In this document: positions 42,143-51,345 of the stretch, piece by piece
Position numbering within the stretch: position 1 is the first letter of the stretch
Layout: every line of letters starts with the position of its first letter
Notes under the pieces: generated by a model
What the model saw: the letters and a program-made list of their open reading frames with translations, nothing else
The model's database searches: none
Told to the model about the DNA's origin: nothing
Assembly (NCBI GenBank): GCA_965223855.1
Contig: CBDCXM010000009.1
Location: 3,136,001 to 3,200,000 of the forward strand
Reading direction: 5' to 3'
Source of the DNA: Candidatus Multivoradales bacterium
Lineage (GTDB): Bacteria > Acidobacteriota > Thermoanaerobaculia > Multivoradales > JAHEKO01
Length of the DNA: 64,000 bases
Position numbers and translations under genes: made by a program

Positions 42143-43126
42143 TCATCGGGAAGCTGCCCGGGAAGCTGAGCCGAGTGAGCGTCCGCAGGCCAGGAAGTCC
42201 CCTAGGCTCGCACTGAGCCCCACTGTTCCGACGCGGCTCTCGTAGTCACCATCGAAGTGGAGGCGGAGCGCCTTCCGCCCCGCACCCAGCATCTGCCGCA
42301 GGAGATCTGCCGCTGCCATTCTCTCCAGCTCGAAGAGGGTGCTGGTGCCACGATCGATGCCGCCCGAGATCTTCACCTCGTCGTCCCCAAGATCCACGGT
42401 GAGAAAGGGATAGTCCCGATCCGGCCAGTCCCGCGCGTCCCGCGGGCCCCGTGGCGGGACGCGGCCTCCGACCCAGCGATCGATGAGATACAGAATCTCC
42501 AGACGAAGGCCCCGCACTTGATCGATGACGAAGCGGATGCGTCCCGTCGCACGATCGCCGTCGATCTCCTTCTCGAGCAGGCAGCGAGAGCCGCCCCGCT
42601 CGAGTGCAGCAGCCCACGGCAGCTCGAGGTTCGACTCCCCCGCCTGGACGGCTTCTCTCAGGGCCTGAAGCCAGATCACGTTTCGCAATCGTTCGTCGGG
42701 ATCGGCGCCGGGCAACGAAGCCATCACTCCCGGGCGGCAGATCCGATCCGCCCCGTCTCCCCTGCAGCGCAGCCCGACCAGCGCCTCTTCCCTTCTTGCT
42801 CGCTTCACCCTCGGCCGGCACAGAGGAACCACCCCCAGCTCGACCGGCAGCTCGTCCACGCGCTCCCCTGCGAGCAGCTCCAGGACCGTCAGATCGTCGA
42901 TGGAGCCGTAGGAGCCGTTGACGACTTCGGCACGGACAACGTAGTCGACCCGCGCAACTCGCTCGACGAGAGTCAGCGCTCGACCAGGGCAGCATTGGGC
43001 CTGCGGCGGCTGCGCAGCGGCCGGCGAGGCCAGCAGCAGGGTCGCGAGGAGCGGCGGGAGCAGACGATGCCTCAGACGCTGATCGCCGAGGCCCTGCGAC
43101 TCCAGTGCCCCGGATCGAAGTGCCAC
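42143..43126 (-). CDS. Hypothetical secreted protein; 5' end abuts the left end of the HUH element
   Basis: Signal-like RHRLLPPLLATLLLASPAAA. The only conventional in-frame start upstream of it lies inside the GAAGTGCCAC end motif. Confidence 0.45.
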   Translation of the reverse strand: MALRSGALESQGLGDQRLRHRLLPPLLATLLLASPAAAQPPQAQCCPGRALTLVERVARVDYVVRAEVVNGSYGSIDDLTVLELLAGERVDELPVELGVVPLCRPRVKRARREEALVGLRCRGDGADRICRPGVMASLPGADPDERLRNVIWLQALREAVQAGESNLELPWAAALERGGSRCLLEKEIDGDRATGRIRFVIDQVRGLRLEILYLIDRWVGGRVPPRGPRDARDWPDRDYPFLTVDLGDDEVKISGGIDRGTSTLFELERMAAADLLRQMLGAGRKALRLHFDGDYESRVGTVGLSASLGDFLACGRSLGSASRAASR

Positions 43127-44400
43127 TCGAATCTGAGAGAACGCCCCCGTGAGATTCTTCCCCAGCTCCCCGTCTGGGAGAGCATGGGACGAAAGCTCCG
43201 CTACCTGCCTTCAGAAGCCCTCGTAGAAGTCACCTGCCGCGTCATCCAACGGCGCTTCCTCCTGCGCCCGTCTCCCGTTCTCAACGAGATCGTCGTCGGC
43301 ACCTTGGCCCGCGCGCAAAGGCGCTACGGGATGAAGGTGTGTGGGTTCGTCTATCTGTCAAACCATTGCCATCTACTGCTCTACCCGACCGACGCCAGGC
43401 AGCTCGCCGACTTCATGCGCTACGTCAACTCCAAGCTTGCTCGCGAGGTCGGACGGCTCCATGACTGGAGAGAGAAAGTCTGGGGGCGGCGCTACGTGGA
43501 CATCGAAGTCTCCGAGGAACCCGAAGCCCAGATCCGCCGTCTTCGCTACCTGCTGAGCCAGGGGGTCAAGGAAGGGCTCGTGGGATCGCCGAGGCACTGG
43601 CCCGGGGCCTCTTCGACCAAGGCTCTCCTTCAGGGGGAAGCGCTCGAAGGTGTCTGGATCGATCGCACGGAGCAGTTCAAGGCCCACGAGCGAGGGGAGG
43701 CCAACCCGGATGCGCTCTTCACCTCCCGCGAAAGAGTGGAACTCTCGCCACTGCCCTGCTGGAACCACGAACCCGAAGGCCACTGGCGATCGGAGGTCCG
43801 GCGGATGGTGAAGGAGATCGAGGAGGAGGCTCCGGACGACGTGCTGGGTAAGGACGCGATCCTCGCCCAACACCCGCACGATCGTCCCAGCACGCCCGAG
43901 AAGCGCACTCCAGCGCCTCGCTTCCACGCGATCGAAGGAAGCGTGCGCCGGGCGCTCGAGGCCGGCTACGCCCTCGTCGTCCTCGCCTATCGGCAGGCGG
44001 CCGAGGACCTCAAGCGCGGCAGGGCCGCCGAGTTCCCCGCCGGATGCTTCAGGCCGGCCCTGGGCTTCGTACCACTCCCGCTCAAGACCTAGCAGCAACG
44101 GGTCGGCAAGTCCCGATACAAGCCAGCCGGCAAAGCCGGGCGGCGGAGCCGTGCCCACTTCTCGTCAGAGTGACCTCAAGAGCGACGACCGGACCCCGAG
44201 AACCGGCCGACAGGCCCGAAACGCAGCGTCGAGAGCGCAGTTCGGACGAACCTCGCAATGCCGAGGTCGCTCCACCAACCCTTACAGAGCCAGCAGGCCA
44301 ACTCTTTCCAGGAAGCGTATGGCACCTCTTTGAGCGCCGACATCCGCCGGGCACCGGCCTCGCGGCACCAGCTTCGCGGGCACACCCTTGCCGCTGACAC
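43104..44400 (+). mobile_element. RAYT-like HUH element, copy 1
   Basis: Left motif GAAGTGCCACTCGAATC (43117), transposase gene, conserved tail, right motif TGGCACCTC (44320) and a GGCAC array to 44400. Homologous to copies 2 and 3. Confidence 0.75.
43184..44092 (+). CDS. HUH Y1 tyrosine transposase (RAYT / IS200-like), 302 aa
   Basis: VEVTCR, HUH motif SNHCHLL, WGRRY, catalytic-Tyr helix RYLLSQGVKEGLV, WPGASS. Confidence 0.9.
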   Translation: MGRKLRYLPSEALVEVTCRVIQRRFLLRPSPVLNEIVVGTLARAQRRYGMKVCGFVYLSNHCHLLLYPTDARQLADFMRYVNSKLAREVGRLHDWREKVWGRRYVDIEVSEEPEAQIRRLRYLLSQGVKEGLVGSPRHWPGASSTKALLQGEALEGVWIDRTEQFKAHERGEANPDALFTSRERVELSPLPCWNHEPEGHWRSEVRRMVKEIEEEAPDDVLGKDAILAQHPHDRPSTPEKRTPAPRFHAIEGSVRRALEAGYALVVLAYRQAAEDLKRGRAAEFPAGCFRPALGFVPLPLKT

Positions 44401-44532
44401 TCACTTCACTCGCTCGTCGTGGGTCACCGGCCATCGCCCGGCACGTCTAGCCGCACCCGCAGCGCCCCTGCCGCTTCCGTGGGCTAGCATCGCCCATCGC
44501 TTCTCAGACCCGACGAAGTTGAAGGAGACCCG

Positions 44533-47382
44533 ATGATTGAATCCTGCATCCAGTTCCTCCGTGGTCCGGAGAGAGCCTCGGACGGTGGTGATGTCGCCAG
44601 ACGACCCGCCCGCGTCTCTCCCGGGTTCGTCGTGGTGGTCGTGTCTCTCCTCGCCCCGCTTCTCGCGGCCGGCCATGGCAGGACAGAGGCCGCAGAAGCT
44701 GGAGCGCAGTTCGGAGCACAGTCCGGGCAGGAGGCCGTTCTCCACAGCGCCCATCTGCTCACCGAGCGGGGTCTCGTCGTAGAAGCGATCGCCCGCACCG
44801 CACAGGCTCTGCGGGAGGATCCCGCGAACGCGCGGGCGCGAAGCTGGCTGCTCGACGCGCTCCAGCGACGGGAGTGGTCGTGGATCCGATCGATCCTCCA
44901 GCATTCGAACGACGACGATCTGACCTCGGCCACGCTCAGCCCCGACGGCACCCGCGTCGTCACGACGTCGCACTCTGGCAGGACAAGGCTCTGGGATGCG
45001 GCGACCGGCCGACCCGTCGGCGAGCCGCTGCACCCCGACCAATCGGTATGGGGGCTGGCCGTATTCAGTCGTGATGGACGGCGCCTGTTCACCGTCTCGA
45101 ACGAGGCCAACGCCTTCTGGGACCCGCAGACGGGCCAGAAGACCGGGGAACTCGACGCCCCCTTCTTCTGGGAGCAGCAGGACGCCGCAGCAGCGGACTT
45201 CAGCCCTGACGGGACGCGCCTGGCGATCGCGGCATCCGAGGGCTTGCCGGTGCTCTTCGACGCCGACACCGGCGAGAGCCTGGCCGACGTCAACCCTCTC
45301 GTGGGAACCCTGTCGCACGTGACGTTCAGCCCCGACGGAGCCTATTTCGTCACGGCCGGATCGGAGACGCTCGAAGATGGGTCGGCTCACGATGGCGTCG
45401 TTCGGTTCTGGGACGGGACGACCGGAGAACCCCTCGGCGCGCCACTCCTTCACGACGCCAGGGCTACCTTTGCGTCCTTCAGTTTCGACGGCACGCGACT
45501 GCTCACTGTCTCGAACCACGGGAGCCCGACCACGCAGCAGGGCGGTGCCGCCCGACTCTGGGACGTGGCCACCCGAACCCCGCTTGGAGGGCCTCTCGAG
45601 CAACCCGGATTCATGCGAAGCGCGTCCTTCAGCCGGGACGGGACGCGCATCCTGACCGTCGCGGACGACCGGATCGGCAGGTTTGCTCAGGCTCAAGTCT
45701 GGGACGTGGCCAGCGGGCAACCGCTCGGACGGACGATCCGGCTCGACTTCACGGATGATTCGGGGTGGCGTGTCTTCTCCGCCTCGTTCAGTCCGGGGGG
45801 CGACCGGATCCTCACGGGAGGGGGAGACACGGACGTGCGCCTTTGGGATGCCGTGACGGGCGAGCCGATCGGAGAGCCCCTCGAGCACGGTTCCGCCGTG
45901 GTCTCGGCCTTGTTCGGCCCGGAAGGCAAGCGGGTCGTCACCGCTTCGGTCGACGGCAGAGCACGGCTCTGGGATGCGGCCATTGGCCAGCCTGACGGAC
46001 AGGCGCTCCGGCACGCGAGCCCCTTGCGCTCCGCGTACTTCAGCCCGGATGGTGGTCGCGTCGTCAGCTCCGCGGACGATCTCGGCGGCGCCCGGTTGTG
46101 GGAGGTGGCTTCAGGCCGGCTCCTCGGCGATCCCCTTCGACACCAGGACCATCGCGTCTTCGAAGCGTCGTTCAGCCCCGACGGCACGAGGGTCGTCACG
46201 GCCTCGGACGACCACACCGCCCAGATCTGGGACGCCGCGACCGGTGAGCGGGTCGGGCCAGCCCTCCGGCATGAAGACGGCGTCTCCTCCGCATCGTTCA
46301 GCCCGGACGGTTCGCTCGTCGTCACTGTCGCCCGGAACTGGGCCGCCGGCGTCTGGAACGCGGTCGGCGGCGAAGCGCTGGGAGAGCGGATCCGACACCG
46401 GGGGCCGATCGTATCCGCGTCGATCAGCCCCGACGGTCGGAGCCTCCTCACGGCCTGGAACGAGGGGAGCCCACCAGATGAAGGGCCGGACCTGGCAAGG
46501 CTCTGGGATCCGTCCACGGGCCAGCCGATTGGACCCTCCCTGCAGAACAACGTCTCCAGGCGGGAGGAGGACATCACGTCGGCCTCCTTCAGTCGGGACG
46601 GGTCGCGGATTCTCTCCGGCCTGTACGCTCGCGCGCTCGTCTTCGACTCGGCCCTCGAGCCGCTGAGGACGCTCGAGGCCGAGCGGTTCGGTGATCTCAG
46701 GACCCAGATCGTTTCGGCAGCCTTCAGTCCCGACGGCAGCCGGGTCGTCACCGCTGGAGAGAACGCCGCCTGGCTCTGGGACGAAGCGACCGGCCAGCGC
46801 GTCGGAGTGCCCCTCTCCCACGAGGGCCGGGTCGGCATGGCGGTGTTCGATCCCGACGGGGCCAGGGTGGTGACCGTCTCCGACGACAGCGCACGGGTAT
46901 GGGACGCGGTCAGCGGACTGCCACTGGGAGGACCGCTGCGACACCAGGCCGAAGTGCTCTCGGCCACCTTCGATGCCGAGGGAGACCGGATCCTCACGGC
47001 CTCGAAGGACGGAACCGCACGGCTCTGGGACGCGGAGATCGGCACCGAGACCGATTCGGCGGTCCTTGCCGATCTCGCCGAGCTGGTCGTCGGATACCGG
47101 CTGAGCGAGCTGCGAGCGCTGGTGCCGATCCGGGAGCCGCGACGAGAACTCGCGCGCCTCGCGCAGGCCGCCGGTACCGGAGAGGGCTTCGGGTGGCACT
47201 TCGTCCGGTGGTTCCTCAGCGACCGGCGGGAGCGCACCGTCTCGCCGCTGTCGACCCAGCCGCTGTCCGACTACTGCCGGGAGGAGCAGGGGTTTCGTGA
47301 AGAGCACCCCTATCCGAAGTTCGAGCTGCCGACGGCCTGCCGGGGGATCGTGGAGGAGGGACCGGGCCGGTCTCCGACATAG
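44533..47382 (+). CDS. Large WD40-repeat protein
   Basis: About 14 repeats of SASFSPDGxRVVTASxDxxARLWD, preceded by a hydrophobic N-terminal segment. Confidence 0.9.
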   Translation: MIESCIQFLRGPERASDGGDVARRPARVSPGFVVVVVSLLAPLLAAGHGRTEAAEAGAQFGAQSGQEAVLHSAHLLTERGLVVEAIARTAQALREDPANARARSWLLDALQRREWSWIRSILQHSNDDDLTSATLSPDGTRVVTTSHSGRTRLWDAATGRPVGEPLHPDQSVWGLAVFSRDGRRLFTVSNEANAFWDPQTGQKTGELDAPFFWEQQDAAAADFSPDGTRLAIAASEGLPVLFDADTGESLADVNPLVGTLSHVTFSPDGAYFVTAGSETLEDGSAHDGVVRFWDGTTGEPLGAPLLHDARATFASFSFDGTRLLTVSNHGSPTTQQGGAARLWDVATRTPLGGPLEQPGFMRSASFSRDGTRILTVADDRIGRFAQAQVWDVASGQPLGRTIRLDFTDDSGWRVFSASFSPGGDRILTGGGDTDVRLWDAVTGEPIGEPLEHGSAVVSALFGPEGKRVVTASVDGRARLWDAAIGQPDGQALRHASPLRSAYFSPDGGRVVSSADDLGGARLWEVASGRLLGDPLRHQDHRVFEASFSPDGTRVVTASDDHTAQIWDAATGERVGPALRHEDGVSSASFSPDGSLVVTVARNWAAGVWNAVGGEALGERIRHRGPIVSASISPDGRSLLTAWNEGSPPDEGPDLARLWDPSTGQPIGPSLQNNVSRREEDITSASFSRDGSRILSGLYARALVFDSALEPLRTLEAERFGDLRTQIVSAAFSPDGSRVVTAGENAAWLWDEATGQRVGVPLSHEGRVGMAVFDPDGARVVTVSDDSARVWDAVSGLPLGGPLRHQAEVLSATFDAEGDRILTASKDGTARLWDAEIGTETDSAVLADLAELVVGYRLSELRALVPIREPRRELARLAQAAGTGEGFGWHFVRWFLSDRRERTVSPLSTQPLSDYCREEQGFREEHPYPKFELPTACRGIVEEGPGRSPT

Positions 47383-47391
47383 GATCGGCGC

Positions 47392-47455
47392 ATGACAAAC
47401 CAAGAGCTGACTCGCCGGATCGAACGACTCGAGCGGACCCACCGGCTGCTGACAC
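47392..47455 (+). pseudogene. Probable 5' remnant of a gene interrupted by HUH element copy 2
   Basis: AGGA then ATG, reading MTNQELTRRIERLERTHRLLT, which runs into the end repeats. Confidence 0.4.
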
Positions 47456-47498
47456 GCCCGATGGAAGTGCCCCGATGGAAGTGCCCGATGGAAGTGCC
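47456..47498 (+). repeat. Three tandem copies of CCCGATGGAAGTG(C) at the left end of element copy 2
   Basis: Directly visible units starting at 47457, 47471 and 47484. Confidence 0.9.
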
Positions 47499-47557
47499 AC
47501 TCGAATCCCAGCGAACACTCTCGTGAGATTTCCCGACCATTCACCGTCTACGAGGGC

Positions 47558-48466
47558 ATGGGACGCAAGCTTCGCCACCTGCCCTCGGAAGCTCTCGTAG
47601 AAGTCACCTGTCGCGTGATCCAGAGGCGCTTTCTGCTGCGCCCGTCTCCGGTACTCAACGAGATCATCATCGGCACCCTTGCCCGAGGGCAGAGGCGCTA
47701 CGGAATGAGGGTGTGCGGGTTCGTCTACCTGTCGAATCACTGCCACCTGCTGCTCTATCCGACGGACGCCAGGCAACTCGCCGACTTCATGCGCTACGTC
47801 AACTCGAAGATCGCCCGCGAGGTCGGGCGGCTCCATGACTGGAGGGAGAAAGTCTGGGGGCGCCGCTATGTGGACATCGAGGTCTCCAAGGAACCCGAGG
47901 CGCAGGTTCACCGTCTTCGCTATCTCCTCCGACAAGGGGTCAAGGAAGGCCTCGTTGCTTCGCCGAAGCACTGGCCCGGAGCCTCCTCGACGAAGGCCCT
48001 GCTTAGGGGCGAAGAGCTCGAAGGCGTCTGGATCGACCGCACGGAGCAGTTCAGGGCCCACGAGCGCGGGGAGCACAACCCGGATGCGCTCTTCACTTCC
48101 CGGGAACGATTGGAGCTCTCTCCACTGCCCTGCTGGGAGCACGAACCAGAGAGCCGCTGGCGATCCGAGGTCCGGCGGATGGTGAGAGAGATCGAGAAGG
48201 AAGCCCCAGAACAGATCCTCGGCAAAGAGGCGATCCTCGCTCAACACCCGCACGATCGCCCCAGCACGCCTGCAAACCGGACCCCCGCGCCTCGCTTCCA
48301 CGCGATCCAAGGAAGCGTGCGCCGAGCGCTGGAGGCCGGCTATGCCCTCGTCGTCCTCGCCTATCGGCAGGCCGCAGAGGATCTCAAGCGCGGCGCAGTC
48401 GCCGACTTCCCCGCCGGGTGCTTCAGGCCGGGCCTCGGATTCGTGCCGCTCCCGCTCAGGGTCTAG
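47558..48466 (+). CDS. HUH Y1 tyrosine transposase (RAYT / IS200-like), 302 aa, paralogue of 43184-44092
   Basis: Same motifs; about 35 aa differences from copy 1 by manual comparison. Confidence 0.9.
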   Translation: MGRKLRHLPSEALVEVTCRVIQRRFLLRPSPVLNEIIIGTLARGQRRYGMRVCGFVYLSNHCHLLLYPTDARQLADFMRYVNSKIAREVGRLHDWREKVWGRRYVDIEVSKEPEAQVHRLRYLLRQGVKEGLVASPKHWPGASSTKALLRGEELEGVWIDRTEQFRAHERGEHNPDALFTSRERLELSPLPCWEHEPESRWRSEVRRMVREIEKEAPEQILGKEAILAQHPHDRPSTPANRTPAPRFHAIQGSVRRALEAGYALVVLAYRQAAEDLKRGAVADFPAGCFRPGLGFVPLPLRV

Positions 48467-48700
48467 CAGCAACGAGCCGGGAAGGCACGGATGGGAGCCA
48501 GCCGGCGAACGCGGGCGGCGGAGCTGTGCCCGCTTCTCGTCGCGCGCAACTCAACCCCGAGCGACTGTCCCCGAAGAGGCACCGAGAGGCCCGGAACGCA
48601 GCCGAGAGAGCGTAGTTCGACGAGCCTCGCAAACTTCAGGATGCCCCATCACCTGTCCAGAAGCATCCTCTTCAGGAAGAGCATGGCACCTCTAGGAGGG

Positions 48701-49078
48701 CGCCTATCGACAGGCGGCGGAGGATCTCAAGCGCGGCAGAGCCGCCGAGTTCCCCGCCGGCTGCTTCAGGCCGGCCCTGGGTTTCACACCACTCCCGCTC
48801 AAGACCTAGTAACAACGAGCCAGGGAGGTCCCGATTTACAAGCCAGCCGACAAGGCCGGGCCGCGGAGCCGTGCCCACTCGTCGTCAGAGTGACCTCAAG
48901 AGCGAACACCGGACCTCGAGAACCGGCCGACAGGCCCGAAACGCAGCTTCGAGAGCCGTGGTTTGGTTGAGCCTCCCGACGTCGAGGTTGCCCCATCACC
49001 CCTTCAGAGCCGTCCGGCAAACTCTTTTCCAAGAAGCGTGTGGCACCTCCTCTCGGGGGCACCTCTTCTCCGGGCCTC
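48701..49078 (+). mobile_element. Truncated third copy: last ~35 transposase codons, tail and right end
   Basis: AYRQAAEDLKRGRAAEFPAGCFRPALGFTPLPLKT with stop at 48809, a tail resembling copy 1, TGGCACCTC at 49041 and GGCACCTC at 49058. Confidence 0.8.
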
Positions 49079-49096: not shown

Positions 49097-50845
49097 TTAG
49101 GGGGTAGGAAGGTAGTGATGGAGGTGCCATCTCTCTAGCCAACCTACGATGTACTCCCGTGCTTCGTCGGGATTCTCATGCCCGCGCATTCCGACCTCCG
49201 TCAGTCCTTCCTCATAGCCGCTGACCCACTTGTCATGCAGACCCTGGGGACTGAAGTGCCACTTGTAGAGGTATACGCCGCACGGCAATTGCCACTCAAG
49301 GCGGGCAGCTTCCAACACCCACAGGTACTCGAAGCGCTCAAACTGAGTGTCAAAATCTGCCTTGTCTTTCGCGACCGATGGGCCGAAGAGCTGCCAGAGT
49401 CGTTCTCGGATGTGGCCGGACATTGCGAAGTAGACGCTTGATCCATATGCCTTCGCGTAGAGGTCGCTCGTAAGTACGCGATCCCCATCGAGACTCCGTA
49501 GCAGCGGCTGGCTATTCGGGAGAGCGTGGCTACCGCCTTCCTCCGCGACCGTGGGATCAAAGACGACGCGGGCCAGCATTCGGAAGTTCTTGCCTGCCAG
49601 CGCACTGATGCCGCACGAGTAGATCAAGAGCAATGCTGGATACCGACTTAGCCTCCTCCAGGCAGTGTACGTCTGTGCGTTCTTGTCTGCTGTCTTGACT
49701 GCGGCGAGTTCCTCGATCGTCCTCACGAGAGCTTGAGAATGATGAGGATCCTGCCCCCAATAGGCGACCGTGGTCGCTATACGCAAGAGCCCCTCTGTCA
49801 GAGCCTCGTATTCTTCGATGCGGTTCTTCATGGTCTCGCCATTCGGAGTTGGAGCAGACCAGCTCATGAGCTCCATGGCCGACCGGACCCGATCACGCTC
49901 ACCCGAGATGAGTCCGTCCATCCTTACTCGATGACGCGGCTCCGACACATAGGTTCTCGCGCGCTCCACCATCAGATCAATCGAGATAGGGTGCTGCCTG
50001 TCGAGGCCTTCAAGTGCTTGAAGTCGTTCGGCTAGCTCATCAAAGAACGAGTCTGCGCTGTCGATAGCGACTTGTACCGCTCCGGTCGCATCGACTATCT
50101 GGCGGCCCGAGTCACGCACTTGCCCTCCCCTAGCGGCCCAGTAGATGGGGAACGTCCTCTGCCGCGTCTCCCGGATGACCTCTCGGAGCGCAATGTCGTA
50201 GTCACCTGACCACCCGCATACCACTAGCCCGAAGTCACGGACTATTTCTCGGAGCATCCTCTTGCGATTCTGGTCGTACTTCGCAAGCTCTTCTTCGGTG
50301 TTCTTGATAGTTGGAGATAGGTAGTCTCCGTTGAGCTTCAAGAGCAAGCACTTCTGGTGAACAAGTGCGAGGGCGCCCTTGGCGTCGGCAGAAGTAGCCA
50401 CCACGGTAGGGTGCACTCCAACCGCCTCTAGCGCTGATTCAAGCAACCGATCGAAGTTGGTCGTGATGATGATCCTGACGTGACCAGACTTGCACAGTCG
50501 GGCGATGGCTCGATGTGCCTGGGTGGGTGCTTTCGAGCCATCGCCGTCCGAGTCAGACGGTTCAAAGTACGGCCGTAGGATTCCTTGACGCTCTACGGGG
50601 CCTGTTCCCAGATTCGTCACCACGCTGGAGTAGGTCGGCTCGCCAAAGCCTTGCTCCCGATACCAAGTCTCGGGATCATCGCCACAATCATCCCCCTTCA
50701 TAGTTCCCAGTTTTCGCACGAGGTCGAGAGCGATCTCATGGCCTGTTGGCATGCCAGCGGCCCGAGAAACGCCTGAACCCACGAGCAACGCGTAGGCTCC
50801 CGGATTGCCGTGGATGGCAAATGCCAACTGGTCAAGTGGGTCCAT
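49097..50845 (-). CDS. SIR2-like (SIR2_2) domain protein, putative anti-phage NADase
   Basis: LLVGSGVSRAAG, IITTNFDRLLE, LLKLNGDY, LVVCGWSG. Visibly lower GC (32/60 at 49621-49680). Start placed at ATG 50845. Confidence 0.85.
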   Translation of the reverse strand: MDPLDQLAFAIHGNPGAYALLVGSGVSRAAGMPTGHEIALDLVRKLGTMKGDDCGDDPETWYREQGFGEPTYSSVVTNLGTGPVERQGILRPYFEPSDSDGDGSKAPTQAHRAIARLCKSGHVRIIITTNFDRLLESALEAVGVHPTVVATSADAKGALALVHQKCLLLKLNGDYLSPTIKNTEEELAKYDQNRKRMLREIVRDFGLVVCGWSGDYDIALREVIRETRQRTFPIYWAARGGQVRDSGRQIVDATGAVQVAIDSADSFFDELAERLQALEGLDRQHPISIDLMVERARTYVSEPRHRVRMDGLISGERDRVRSAMELMSWSAPTPNGETMKNRIEEYEALTEGLLRIATTVAYWGQDPHHSQALVRTIEELAAVKTADKNAQTYTAWRRLSRYPALLLIYSCGISALAGKNFRMLARVVFDPTVAEEGGSHALPNSQPLLRSLDGDRVLTSDLYAKAYGSSVYFAMSGHIRERLWQLFGPSVAKDKADFDTQFERFEYLWVLEAARLEWQLPCGVYLYKWHFSPQGLHDKWVSGYEEGLTEVGMRGHENPDEAREYIVGWLERWHLHHYLPTP

Positions 50846-50865
50846 TCCAGTAACTTCCACGCCGT

Positions 50866-51039
50866 TCAGACGGACAGGTGTTTCCTTGGATGCCACAATC
50901 CCGCCAGCTGCCGCCGCAATGCCCTGAACACCTCCGACCACGTAGTGCCGGAGGCATGGACACTCGGCACCCCGACCACGGTGCCGACGATCACGCCGAA
51001 CAACGGGCGCTCTTCGAGGGCAACGTCGAAGCCCTGCAT
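50866..51039 (-). CDS. HicB-like small protein (57 aa, possibly degenerate)
   Basis: FDVALEERPLFGVIVGTVVGVPSVHASGTTWSEVFRAL resembles the HicB N-terminal beta-beta-beta-alpha pattern. Confidence 0.45.
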   Translation of the reverse strand: MQGFDVALEERPLFGVIVGTVVGVPSVHASGTTWSEVFRALRRQLAGLWHPRKHLSV

Positions 51040-51345
51040 CCGCCACAGGGGCGGCGGGCCTGCCTCGACGCCTCCCGACAGGCGGCGGCGATAGGGGAAC
51101 GGGTTCCCGCGAGAATCGTACATATGCTATTGGCCGAGTCTACACGCGGCGACTCCCCTCCCTTCGCTGCCCACGCCAAGGCGCAAGACCCCCAATTGAG
51201 CGGCGGCGGGCGCTGCACTTCGCTGCTACGCCACGCTCCCGAGGGGCCGCCAAACTCTTGCAGTCGTCTTGCAAGCCTGCTCGCACAGCCCCGAAACCGT
51301 AGGGGGGCAATCCAAGCAACTTGTTTGTTTTGTTGAACTTGGAAT

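Follow-up and report, generated by a model that had tools for sequence, protein, structure and literature searches.

Non-coding right arms of a multi-copy TIRtron-type mobile unit in Candidatus Multivoradales bacterium

RAYT-like genes that carry terminal inverted repeats in place of REPs have been named TIRYT, for TIR-associated tyrosine transposase, or TIRtron (Di Nocera, De Gregorio and Rocco 2013, PMC3733652), and a sharply defined Acidobacteria-specific group of TIRYTs is mentioned in the same paper. Most TIRYTs belong to subclass 2.1, which has a DnaA-C/HTH-like C-terminal domain (Quentin 2018, PMC6006769). TIRtrons were named from genome surveys, and no experimental or biochemical study of any TIRYT was found in the literature searched, as far as the available text of those papers extends. 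RAYTs are typically single-copy genes, and their REPs, present in hundreds of copies, are hairpins that have a GTAG foot. Elements of the IS200/IS605 type have no terminal inverted repeats; their ends are short and a hairpin is located at each end. In bridge RNA and seekRNA systems a DEDD/serine-type IS110 recombinase is encoded beside an RNA, the loops of which are complementary to the target and donor flanks.

The present analysis concerns a stretch of 64,000 nucleotides, here called the window, from the genome of Candidatus Multivoradales bacterium (Acidobacteriota; GenBank assembly GCA_965223855.1, contig CBDCXM010000009.1, positions 3,136,001 to 3,200,000 of the forward strand), together with relatives of the unit it contains. 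The unit is a TIRtron/TIRYT-type element and represents a previously undescribed family of this little-studied known type. As in the TIRtrons and TIRYTs of the available descriptions, a RAYT-like Y1/HUH gene is located between terminal inverted repeats, and the repeat is also found nearby, both solo and in clusters. The family differs from the described members of subclass 2.1, which have a DnaA-C/HTH-like domain, in that none was detected here by Pfam. It also differs in the repeat, the core of which is GGTGCCA whereas GGGGWSAS is given for some described TIRs, and in being a multi-copy family with ~20 copies per genome. No account of a long right arm, of a stem-loop with an adjoining box or of truncated tandem copies was found in the available text of the two TIRYT papers (PMC3733652, PMC6006769), although the distances from gene to repeat are listed in Figure 9 of the 2013 paper, in which a long right arm may already be apparent.

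Layout of the unit and its enzyme

The tails that are the subject of this report are the 3' non-coding right arms of mobile units of ~1.2 kb. Each unit is composed, in order, of a left inverted repeat, a leader of ~55-70 nt, a gene encoding a RAYT-like Y1/HUH enzyme of ~300 amino acids, a tail of ~235 nt and a right inverted repeat. Copies A and B of the window are homologous from GAAGTGCCACTCGAATC, ~70 nt upstream of the ATG, to ..ATGGCACCTC, ~230 nt past the stop codon. All features of the three copies are on the plus strand. The left end of copy A (43104..43140), where the homology with copy B starts, includes AGTGCC (43104-43109), which is a partial junction repeat, and the core GAAGTGCCACTCGAATC of the left inverted repeat (43117-43133); this left end is the inverse of the right end. 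Gene A (43184..44092) encodes a 302-aa RAYT-like Y1/HUH enzyme with the PF01797 domain and is followed by tail A, a non-coding right arm of 236 nt (44093..44328) that terminates in the right inverted repeat (44304..44328). The left end of copy B (47460..47514) is marked by the junction word GATGGAAGTGCC, present three times before the copy (47460-47471, 47474-47485 and 47487-47498), and by the left inverted repeat core at 47491-47507. Gene B (47558..48466) encodes 302 amino acids with 88% identity to the product of gene A, and tail B (48467..48692) contains a stem-loop (48497-48519), a box (48520-48533) and the right inverted repeat (48668-48692).

The preliminary description of this DNA placed such a tail downstream of each HUH gene. 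This is accurate for tails A and B, both of which follow whole genes recognized by Pfam as Y1_Tnp, but not for tail C (48810..49049), which follows a 3' gene fragment comprising only the last 35 codons and the stop codon (48702..48809; 97% identity to residues 268-302 by tblastn). Since tail C is preceded by this fragment, copy C is a 5'-truncated copy located 9 nt past the end of copy B. Tail C contains a weakened stem-loop (48842-48864), the box (48865-48878) and the right inverted repeat (49025-49049), and a junction word consisting of CACCTC plus ~10 nt is present twice following its right end (49044..49075).

Since the two ends of the unit are inverse complements, the terminal GAAG..TGGCACCTC block of the tails is the right terminal inverted repeat. 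In copy A itself the right and left ends agree as reverse complements at ~15 of 24 positions, counted by eye, with a weak match score of 14, and the case therefore rests on sister copies. The ends of the sister copy at C9:1592435 are inverse complements at 17 of 18 positions, and inverse complementarity of the two ends also holds for other copies of the same genome and for foreign copies, with scores up to 38. The boundaries and inverted repeats of the unit were found in all five close copies, in 20 copies of the window's own genome and in other genomes. The repeat core has the form (A/G)GGTGCCA...GAAT, and a run of G or C is often present just outside the ends. The other group-1 copies also have the word GAAGTGCCACTCGAATC, ~55-70 nt upstream of their ATG, and a related core, AGGTGCC..., is found at the matching place in other subfamilies. 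On the right side 33 of 60 tails contained the core TGGCACC within their final 75 nt. Short junction words are repeated outside the left end in 9 of 28 cases and outside the right end in 4 of 28, compared to 0 of 28 for a coding control.

The N-terminal region of the enzyme was recognized as PF01797 (Y1_Tnp), with 28.3 bits for the product of gene A and 25.2 bits for that of gene B relative to a cut-off of 23. The NCBIfam model REP_Tyr_transpos scored 51.7 bits with the product of gene A, which is under the cut-off of 80, and its match to the product of gene B was likewise under the cut-off. The HUH residues H61 and H63 and the tyrosine Y122 are invariant across 43 sequences. The AlphaFold model of the product of gene A, built with 43 homologues, had a mean pLDDT of 85.7. 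Its best structural match, far ahead of the others, was E. coli TnpA-REP in complex with the REP hairpin (4er8_A; Foldseek E 4e-6; Z 14.4, rmsd 2.5, 152 residues aligned over the model range 1-215), and residues 40-127 matched ISDra2 TnpA by sequence profile (E 3e-4). The solved relatives among the structure matches listed are all complexes with DNA hairpins, judged from the titles of the entries. Y1_Tnp was the only domain detected by Pfam. The fold matches to RAYT cover only residues ~1-215 and no structural match was listed for the C-terminal ~85 residues, where a small HTH is possible.

The window's own genome contains 19 intact full-length copies of the gene and one that is split, 56-100% identical to gene A, in addition to fragments. 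These copies fall into at least four subfamilies, each copy having the same layout. Relatives were found in 63 of the 401 genomes sampled from the class, a tally that takes in an unpublished genome (G104) as well as the window's own. In another genus, two complete genomes contain 17 and 12 copies. A protein search returned 864 relatives at E≤1e-10, some labelled RayT by their source, and the related public records are, by their titles, MAGs of Thermoanaerobaculia and Acidobacteriota. A metagenome scan yielded 8 loci, of which two (L067 and L069) contained a whole tail and three more a partial tail; tails closely related to the window's type were not found outside its own genome.

The unit resembles REPtrons in that the enzyme has the same fold and a short repeat is located in inverted copies on either side of the gene. 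It differs in its ~20 gene copies, in having repeats that are not hairpins and in an end word with only 15 matches in the 4.5-Mb genome. Features shared with IS200/IS605 elements, such as IS608 and ISDra2, are the Y1/HUH enzyme and a subterminal stem-loop as a candidate recognition site. The differences from these elements are the inverted repeats of 17-25 nt, the right arm of 235 nt and the size of the protein, which is 300 aa compared to ~130-150 aa for TnpA. No hairpin common to the subfamilies was seen at the left end.

The right arm and its stem-loop

The reading favored here, to which we assign a probability of about two in three, is that a TIRtron-type mobile unit, present in multiple copies, has the tail as its non-coding right arm. 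This arm would work in cis as DNA, with the inverted repeat as the end-recognition site of the enzyme. The stem-loop and box would serve either as a single-stranded DNA hairpin for the RAYT-like domain, comparable to REP and to the end hairpins of IS608, or as a hairpin at the 3' end of the transposase mRNA, and the ~130 nt in the middle of the tail would be a spacer. The abundant family analyzed here maps conserved parts of the right arm, namely an inverted repeat, a short stem-loop with a box and a spacer of kept length, which are concrete pieces for assays.

A short stem-loop on the sense strand, followed by a GAGCYGTGCCC-like box, is located 30-65 nt past the stop codon and is kept across subfamilies. 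In tail A the fold prediction places the stem-loop at 44122..44144 (CCGGC-AAA-GCCGG with outer GCC/GGC pairs). The conserved box GGAGCCGTGCCCAC (44145..44158) is present in copies A, B and C, in the further copies D and E and in the relative L008, with variants in copies F and G. In the window's subfamily the stem always lies 5-6 nt before the box, and its strands are CCGGC/GCCGG in A, D and G and CCAGC/GCUGG in F; E has UCGGC, and GAGGC/GCCUC is found in a relative from another genome. Of the 40 cells of this 5-bp stem, 37 were paired (92.5%), compared to 15-52% in controls in which the position was slid. Pairs are broken in the window copies B and C. Three of the five pairs were compensatory versus 0.4±0.6 in shuffles (1 of 500), in an alignment that was cut by eye to begin at the stem and in which just two sequences supply all three compensatory pairs. 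In a sister subfamily within the same genome, a hairpin of 20 pairs is found at the same place, 5 of which were compensatory versus 1.1±0.9 in shuffles (0 of 500); several of its pairs are U-G, which can form on the sense strand only and would be mismatched on the opposite strand. Judged from these alignments, covariation lends the stem-loop modest support.

A related box, GAGGTGTGYC, is found 50-80 nt past the stop codon in another genus, in which GAGGTGT occurred at positions 30-105 in 12 of 60 tails versus 0 of 60 at positions 105-180. In 22 tails the box was located 45-78 nt past the stop codon with an SD of 7. The pattern was matched in only 8 of 44 independent tails, and the box is thus subfamily-specific and not universal. 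Two apparent regularities were considered and rejected. A general hairpin before the box gave a mean z of -0.43 in 27 anchored tails, no different from the controls (-0.20 and -0.29). A fixed distance from box to right end, 182-188 nt in 15 of 22 tails, was found in 1 of the 8 boxed tails of the independent set; the five clear boxes of that set of 44 tails are 187-198 nt from the right end, and an interpretation of the outliers by helical phase was not adopted, being post hoc.

A possible, if doubtful, alternative is that only the stem-loop and box matter, as single-stranded DNA that is bound by the RAYT-like domain and cut next to the hairpin, with the catalytic site ~185 nt inside the right repeat. 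The RAYT fold and the hairpin complexes among its listed solved relatives are in favor of this alternative. So are the pairing of the stem, which is kept while its letters change, and the position of the box, both relative to the stem in the window's subfamily and relative to the stop codon in the 22 tails. It is opposed by the left end, where there is no matching hairpin and box, and by the anchored tails, in which the hairpin before the box is no more stable than the controls. Partial copies in tandem are also against it, as they begin at many points and not at the box (tail positions 34, 50, 89, 93 and 98 in the window's own genome), and a hairpin located right after a stop codon also resembles a terminator or a stabilizer of the mRNA.

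Similarity, length and divergence of the tails

Tails A, B and C can be aligned end to end over 254 columns with a mean column identity of 84%. When tail A was used as a DNA query against its own 4.5-Mb genome, exactly three sites were found, namely A itself (100%), B (84%, E 5e-63) and C (72%, E 1e-23). The preliminary description reported that the blocks AGCCAGCCG, GCGGAGCYGTGCCCRCT, AGGCCCGRAACGCAGC, GAGAGC and GAAG..TGGCACCTC are common to the three tails in the same order, that indels lie between them and that no conserved open reading frame is present. The alignment bears out the blocks, their order and the indels. A survey of both strands of 41 tails of the family agrees on the third point, with no frame consistently open; frames open for at least 60 codons were found in 34-51% of the tails in any one frame. 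The similarity of the three tails is accounted for by A and B being diverged paralogous copies and C a 5'-truncated tandem copy, and their resemblance thus comes mainly from paralogy and tandem truncation.

The length of the tail is confined to a narrow band. It was 215-281 nt in 19 copies of the window's own genome, with a median of 238.5 nt (IQR 229-249) in 66 tails and of 247.5 nt (IQR 231-261) in 44 independent tails fetched later, counts that leave out 14 of 62 and 13 of 57 elements having no recognizable right-end core within 520 nt. The band holds across elements with proteins that are only 45-55% identical. The rate of change was compared in 35 pairs of elements with at least 80% protein identity, with the 4-fold sites in the final 110 codons as reference. 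Without its last 28 nt, the tail had a mean identity of 0.65 (0.60 when gap columns were counted as differences) versus 0.62 at the 4-fold sites, and the tail was more alike than the 4-fold sites in 18 of the 35 pairs. Since the two identities are about equal, the tail taken as a whole drifts about as fast as the synonymous sites near it.

The rate is uneven among pairs. The tails of A and B have an identity of ~0.70-0.73, above their 4-fold identity of ~0.64-0.66, whereas the tails of A and D and of A and E are at random level (0.53-0.54 versus 0.46-0.47 when shuffled) despite a 4-fold identity equal to that of A and B. These uneven rates go together with a mosaic evolution of the copies. In one subfamily, three copies share 99-100% identity over a stretch that runs from the left end to 450-700 nt into the gene; their identity drops to ~0.8 at the 3' end of the gene and to 0.6-0.7 in the tail.

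These results bear on an unlikely alternative in which the tail minus the inverted repeat is a functionless spacer and the blocks of A, B and C are a remnant of recent common descent. The agreement, on average, of tail identity with that of neighboring 4-fold sites is consistent with such a spacer, as are the random level of the A-D and A-E tails and the unremarkable composition of the tails, in which no base-composition skew was found. Non-functional DNA is usually lost in bacteria. The alternative does not account for the narrow length band among proteins of 45-55% identity, for the covarying stem-loop or for the recurrence of the box in distant subfamilies, where GAGGTGT is found near the stop codon and not further in. 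The kept length of the tail together with the covarying stem-loop argues for selection beyond that on the inverted repeat alone.

Partial copies of the right end are present in tandem just past the right end in 11 of 30 elements. They are 11-205 nt in length, six being at least 139 nt, and copy C of the window, which begins inside the gene, is the longest partial copy. Partial copies of the left end precede the element in 6 of 30 and are only 12-47 nt in length. A decidedly unlikely proposal is that the stem-loop, the box and the right inverted repeat form an origin-like end for polar, replicative copying, of the rolling-circle or one-ended type, by the RAYT-like enzyme. Polar copying from the right end would explain why the right end and tail are never missing from the partial tandem copies, why the similarity between copies is highest at the left end and lowest at the right, and why the length of the tail is kept while its letters drift. 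If the reading in which the arm is active were true, TIRtrons would work unlike both the IS200/IS605 and the REP-RAYT systems; in a bolder version of the idea, the arm may be an element-specific RNA or single-strand cofactor.

Folding, covariation and flank comparisons

The preliminary description proposed that the tail could be a non-coding RNA or structured end, with a speculative function as a guide. The structured end stands insofar as the tail forms the right-hand end of a mobile unit, with a terminal inverted repeat in its last ~25 nt and a short stem-loop with some covariation, but no RNA fold spanning the tail was found. The RNA and guide part obtained no support from covariation, folding energy, flank matches, Rfam or divergence rate. 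When tails A, B and C were analyzed with RNAalifold on the sense strand, none of the 52 predicted pairs was compensatory and many were broken; on the antisense strand 76 pairs were predicted, of which 4 were compensatory. The consensus of 9 alignable tails of another genus comprised 16 pairs at -7.2 kcal/mol. For 16 whole tails of the window's own genome the mean folding z on the sense strand was -0.78 (A, -0.76; B, +1.45) versus +0.22 for coding controls. In 70-nt windows over 99 tails the mean z on the sense strand was -0.37 in the first window (p = 0.025) and -0.22 in each of the other two, with values of about -0.2 on the opposite strand. No Rfam family was assigned to the tails, the only two rows being at chance level, one of them at 48660-48764 with 18.8 bits versus a gathering score of 37.

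The start of the tail had seemed by eye to echo the element's own left flank, an impression that was rejected on comparison of self with non-self flanks, which revealed no excess. With 12-nt words, ungapped and restricted to the immediate flanks (four left and three right positions, both senses, two regions of the tail), self comparisons gave a mean of 6.8-7.6 matches of 12, equal to non-self (n = 28). A copy of the left end inside the tail, convincing in one subfamily, was also rejected. Among 63 tails the mean score was 13.7 versus 14.0 for shuffled queries, and only 2 exceeded the shuffles at p≤0.05.

The tail resembles the IS110 bridge RNA, the IS1111 seekRNA and the TnpB omega RNA or reRNA in that a non-coding stretch of ~200 nt lies inside a small element beside its end. 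The differences are that the enzyme is of another class and that neither a tail-spanning covarying fold nor complementarity to the flanks was found here; the sole gene of the unit encodes the Y1/HUH enzyme, and no TnpB or IS110-type protein is present. That the tail is transcribed as a structured RNA cofactor or guide for the Y1 enzyme, in the manner of the IS110 bridge RNA or the TnpB omega RNA or reRNA, is very improbable, as a non-coding tail with a kept length of ~240 nt near the end of the element, a small covarying stem-loop and tail types that are either exchanged or diverge independently of the coding sequence (0.70 for A-B versus 0.54 for A-D, at an equal 4-fold identity of 0.66) are weighed against the lack of compensatory pairs in A, B and C, the meager consensus of the other genus, z values near zero over 99 tails, the null result with the flanks and the absence of an Rfam family, of a promoter-like site and of a TnpB or IS110-type protein. 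Judged from the sequences compared, a structured or guide RNA has little support, a useful negative in that a non-coding tail located beside a transposase gene is not necessarily a guide RNA even when it looks conserved. A scan of the tails returned no promoter-like sites, and a corresponding scan for terminators returned a single terminator-like site, fewer than in shuffles, which is located on the minus strand at 48834-48820 within tail C.

Identity along the length of the copies

Among three copies from the window's own genome (loci L077-L079, contig C9 positions 92890-93795, 3053090-3053968 and 525739-526617), identity was 99-100% over the left end and the gene's initial 450-700 nt, ~0.8 at the 3' end of the gene and 0.6-0.7 in the tail, the non-coding right arm of the element. 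Synonymous positions followed the same direction, as identity at 4-fold sites was greater in the 5' two-thirds of the gene than in the last 110 codons for 27 of 35 close pairs (one tie, seven reversed), pairs that are not independent of each other. Since identity between copies drops from left to right, the comparison suggests either polar gene conversion or a copying process that would start at the left end.

Tandem truncated copies and repeated end words

Eleven of 30 elements were followed by tandem 5'-truncated copies of up to 205 nt in which the right end was kept; partial copies with a left end reached 47 nt at most. Right-end-keeping copies were present at loci L078-L080, L084 and L021 and in the window at 48702-49049, where the truncated copy C starts after a gap of 9 nt from the end of copy B. 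The tail of copy C was nearer to that of copy A (84%) than to that of B (72%), despite adjoining B.

Short words spanning the junction of flank and element end formed tandem repeats beyond the left and right ends (left, 9/28; right, 4/28; control, 0/28), in the window at 47460-47498 and 49044-49075 and also at many other loci, and the entire inverted repeat was present three times at some foreign loci (L069 and L070). Outside the element ends, at 5-7 nt, there was often a stretch of C on the left or of G on the right. Solo inverted-repeat words without a transposase gene were also observed between genes of the own genome, on contig C2 at 169674, 170256, 170313 and 176490 and on C9 at 1992628. 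Within C9:1992560-1992700, one and the same repeated flank word precedes end words that belong to two different subfamilies.

Spacing and motifs within the tails

Among 22 tails, the sequences of which are unalignable, 15 had a distance of 182-188 nt between the right end and the box, a short conserved motif after the stop codon that is GAGCYGTGCCC-like in the window's subfamily. In an independent set the box was found in 8 of 44 further elements, and the distance was 187-198 nt for the five clear boxes. The spacing occupies a narrow band, yet is not fixed. A near-palindromic word in the middle of the tail, CTTGACAAG, was conserved in eight of nine related tails from another genus (L048-L065) and may be a protein-binding site. 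It contains TTGACA, but lacks a -10-like partner at 16-18 nt.

Tail A in another sample and genes adjoining the copies

A 489-nt contig of depth 54 from another sample (coded run X3) spans window positions 43929-44388 and comprises the 3' end of the gene together with tail A and 60 flanking nucleotides. Before 43929 it carries 29 unlike letters, and depth in the adjacent bins was 1-9. The contig may represent a truncated or rearranged variant from a more abundant strain.

Copies A and B (43104-48692) form direct repeats on either side of an ORF encoding 949 residues with WD40 repeats (44533-47382), an arrangement resembling the layout of a composite transposon. Beyond copy C, the minus strand carries at 49097-51046 an ORF of 649 residues that includes a SIR2-like domain (PF13289, E 3e-9); this ORF ends 48 nt past the right end of the copy. 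An end-like word, GGAGGTGCCA, lies at 49120-49129 within its last codons.
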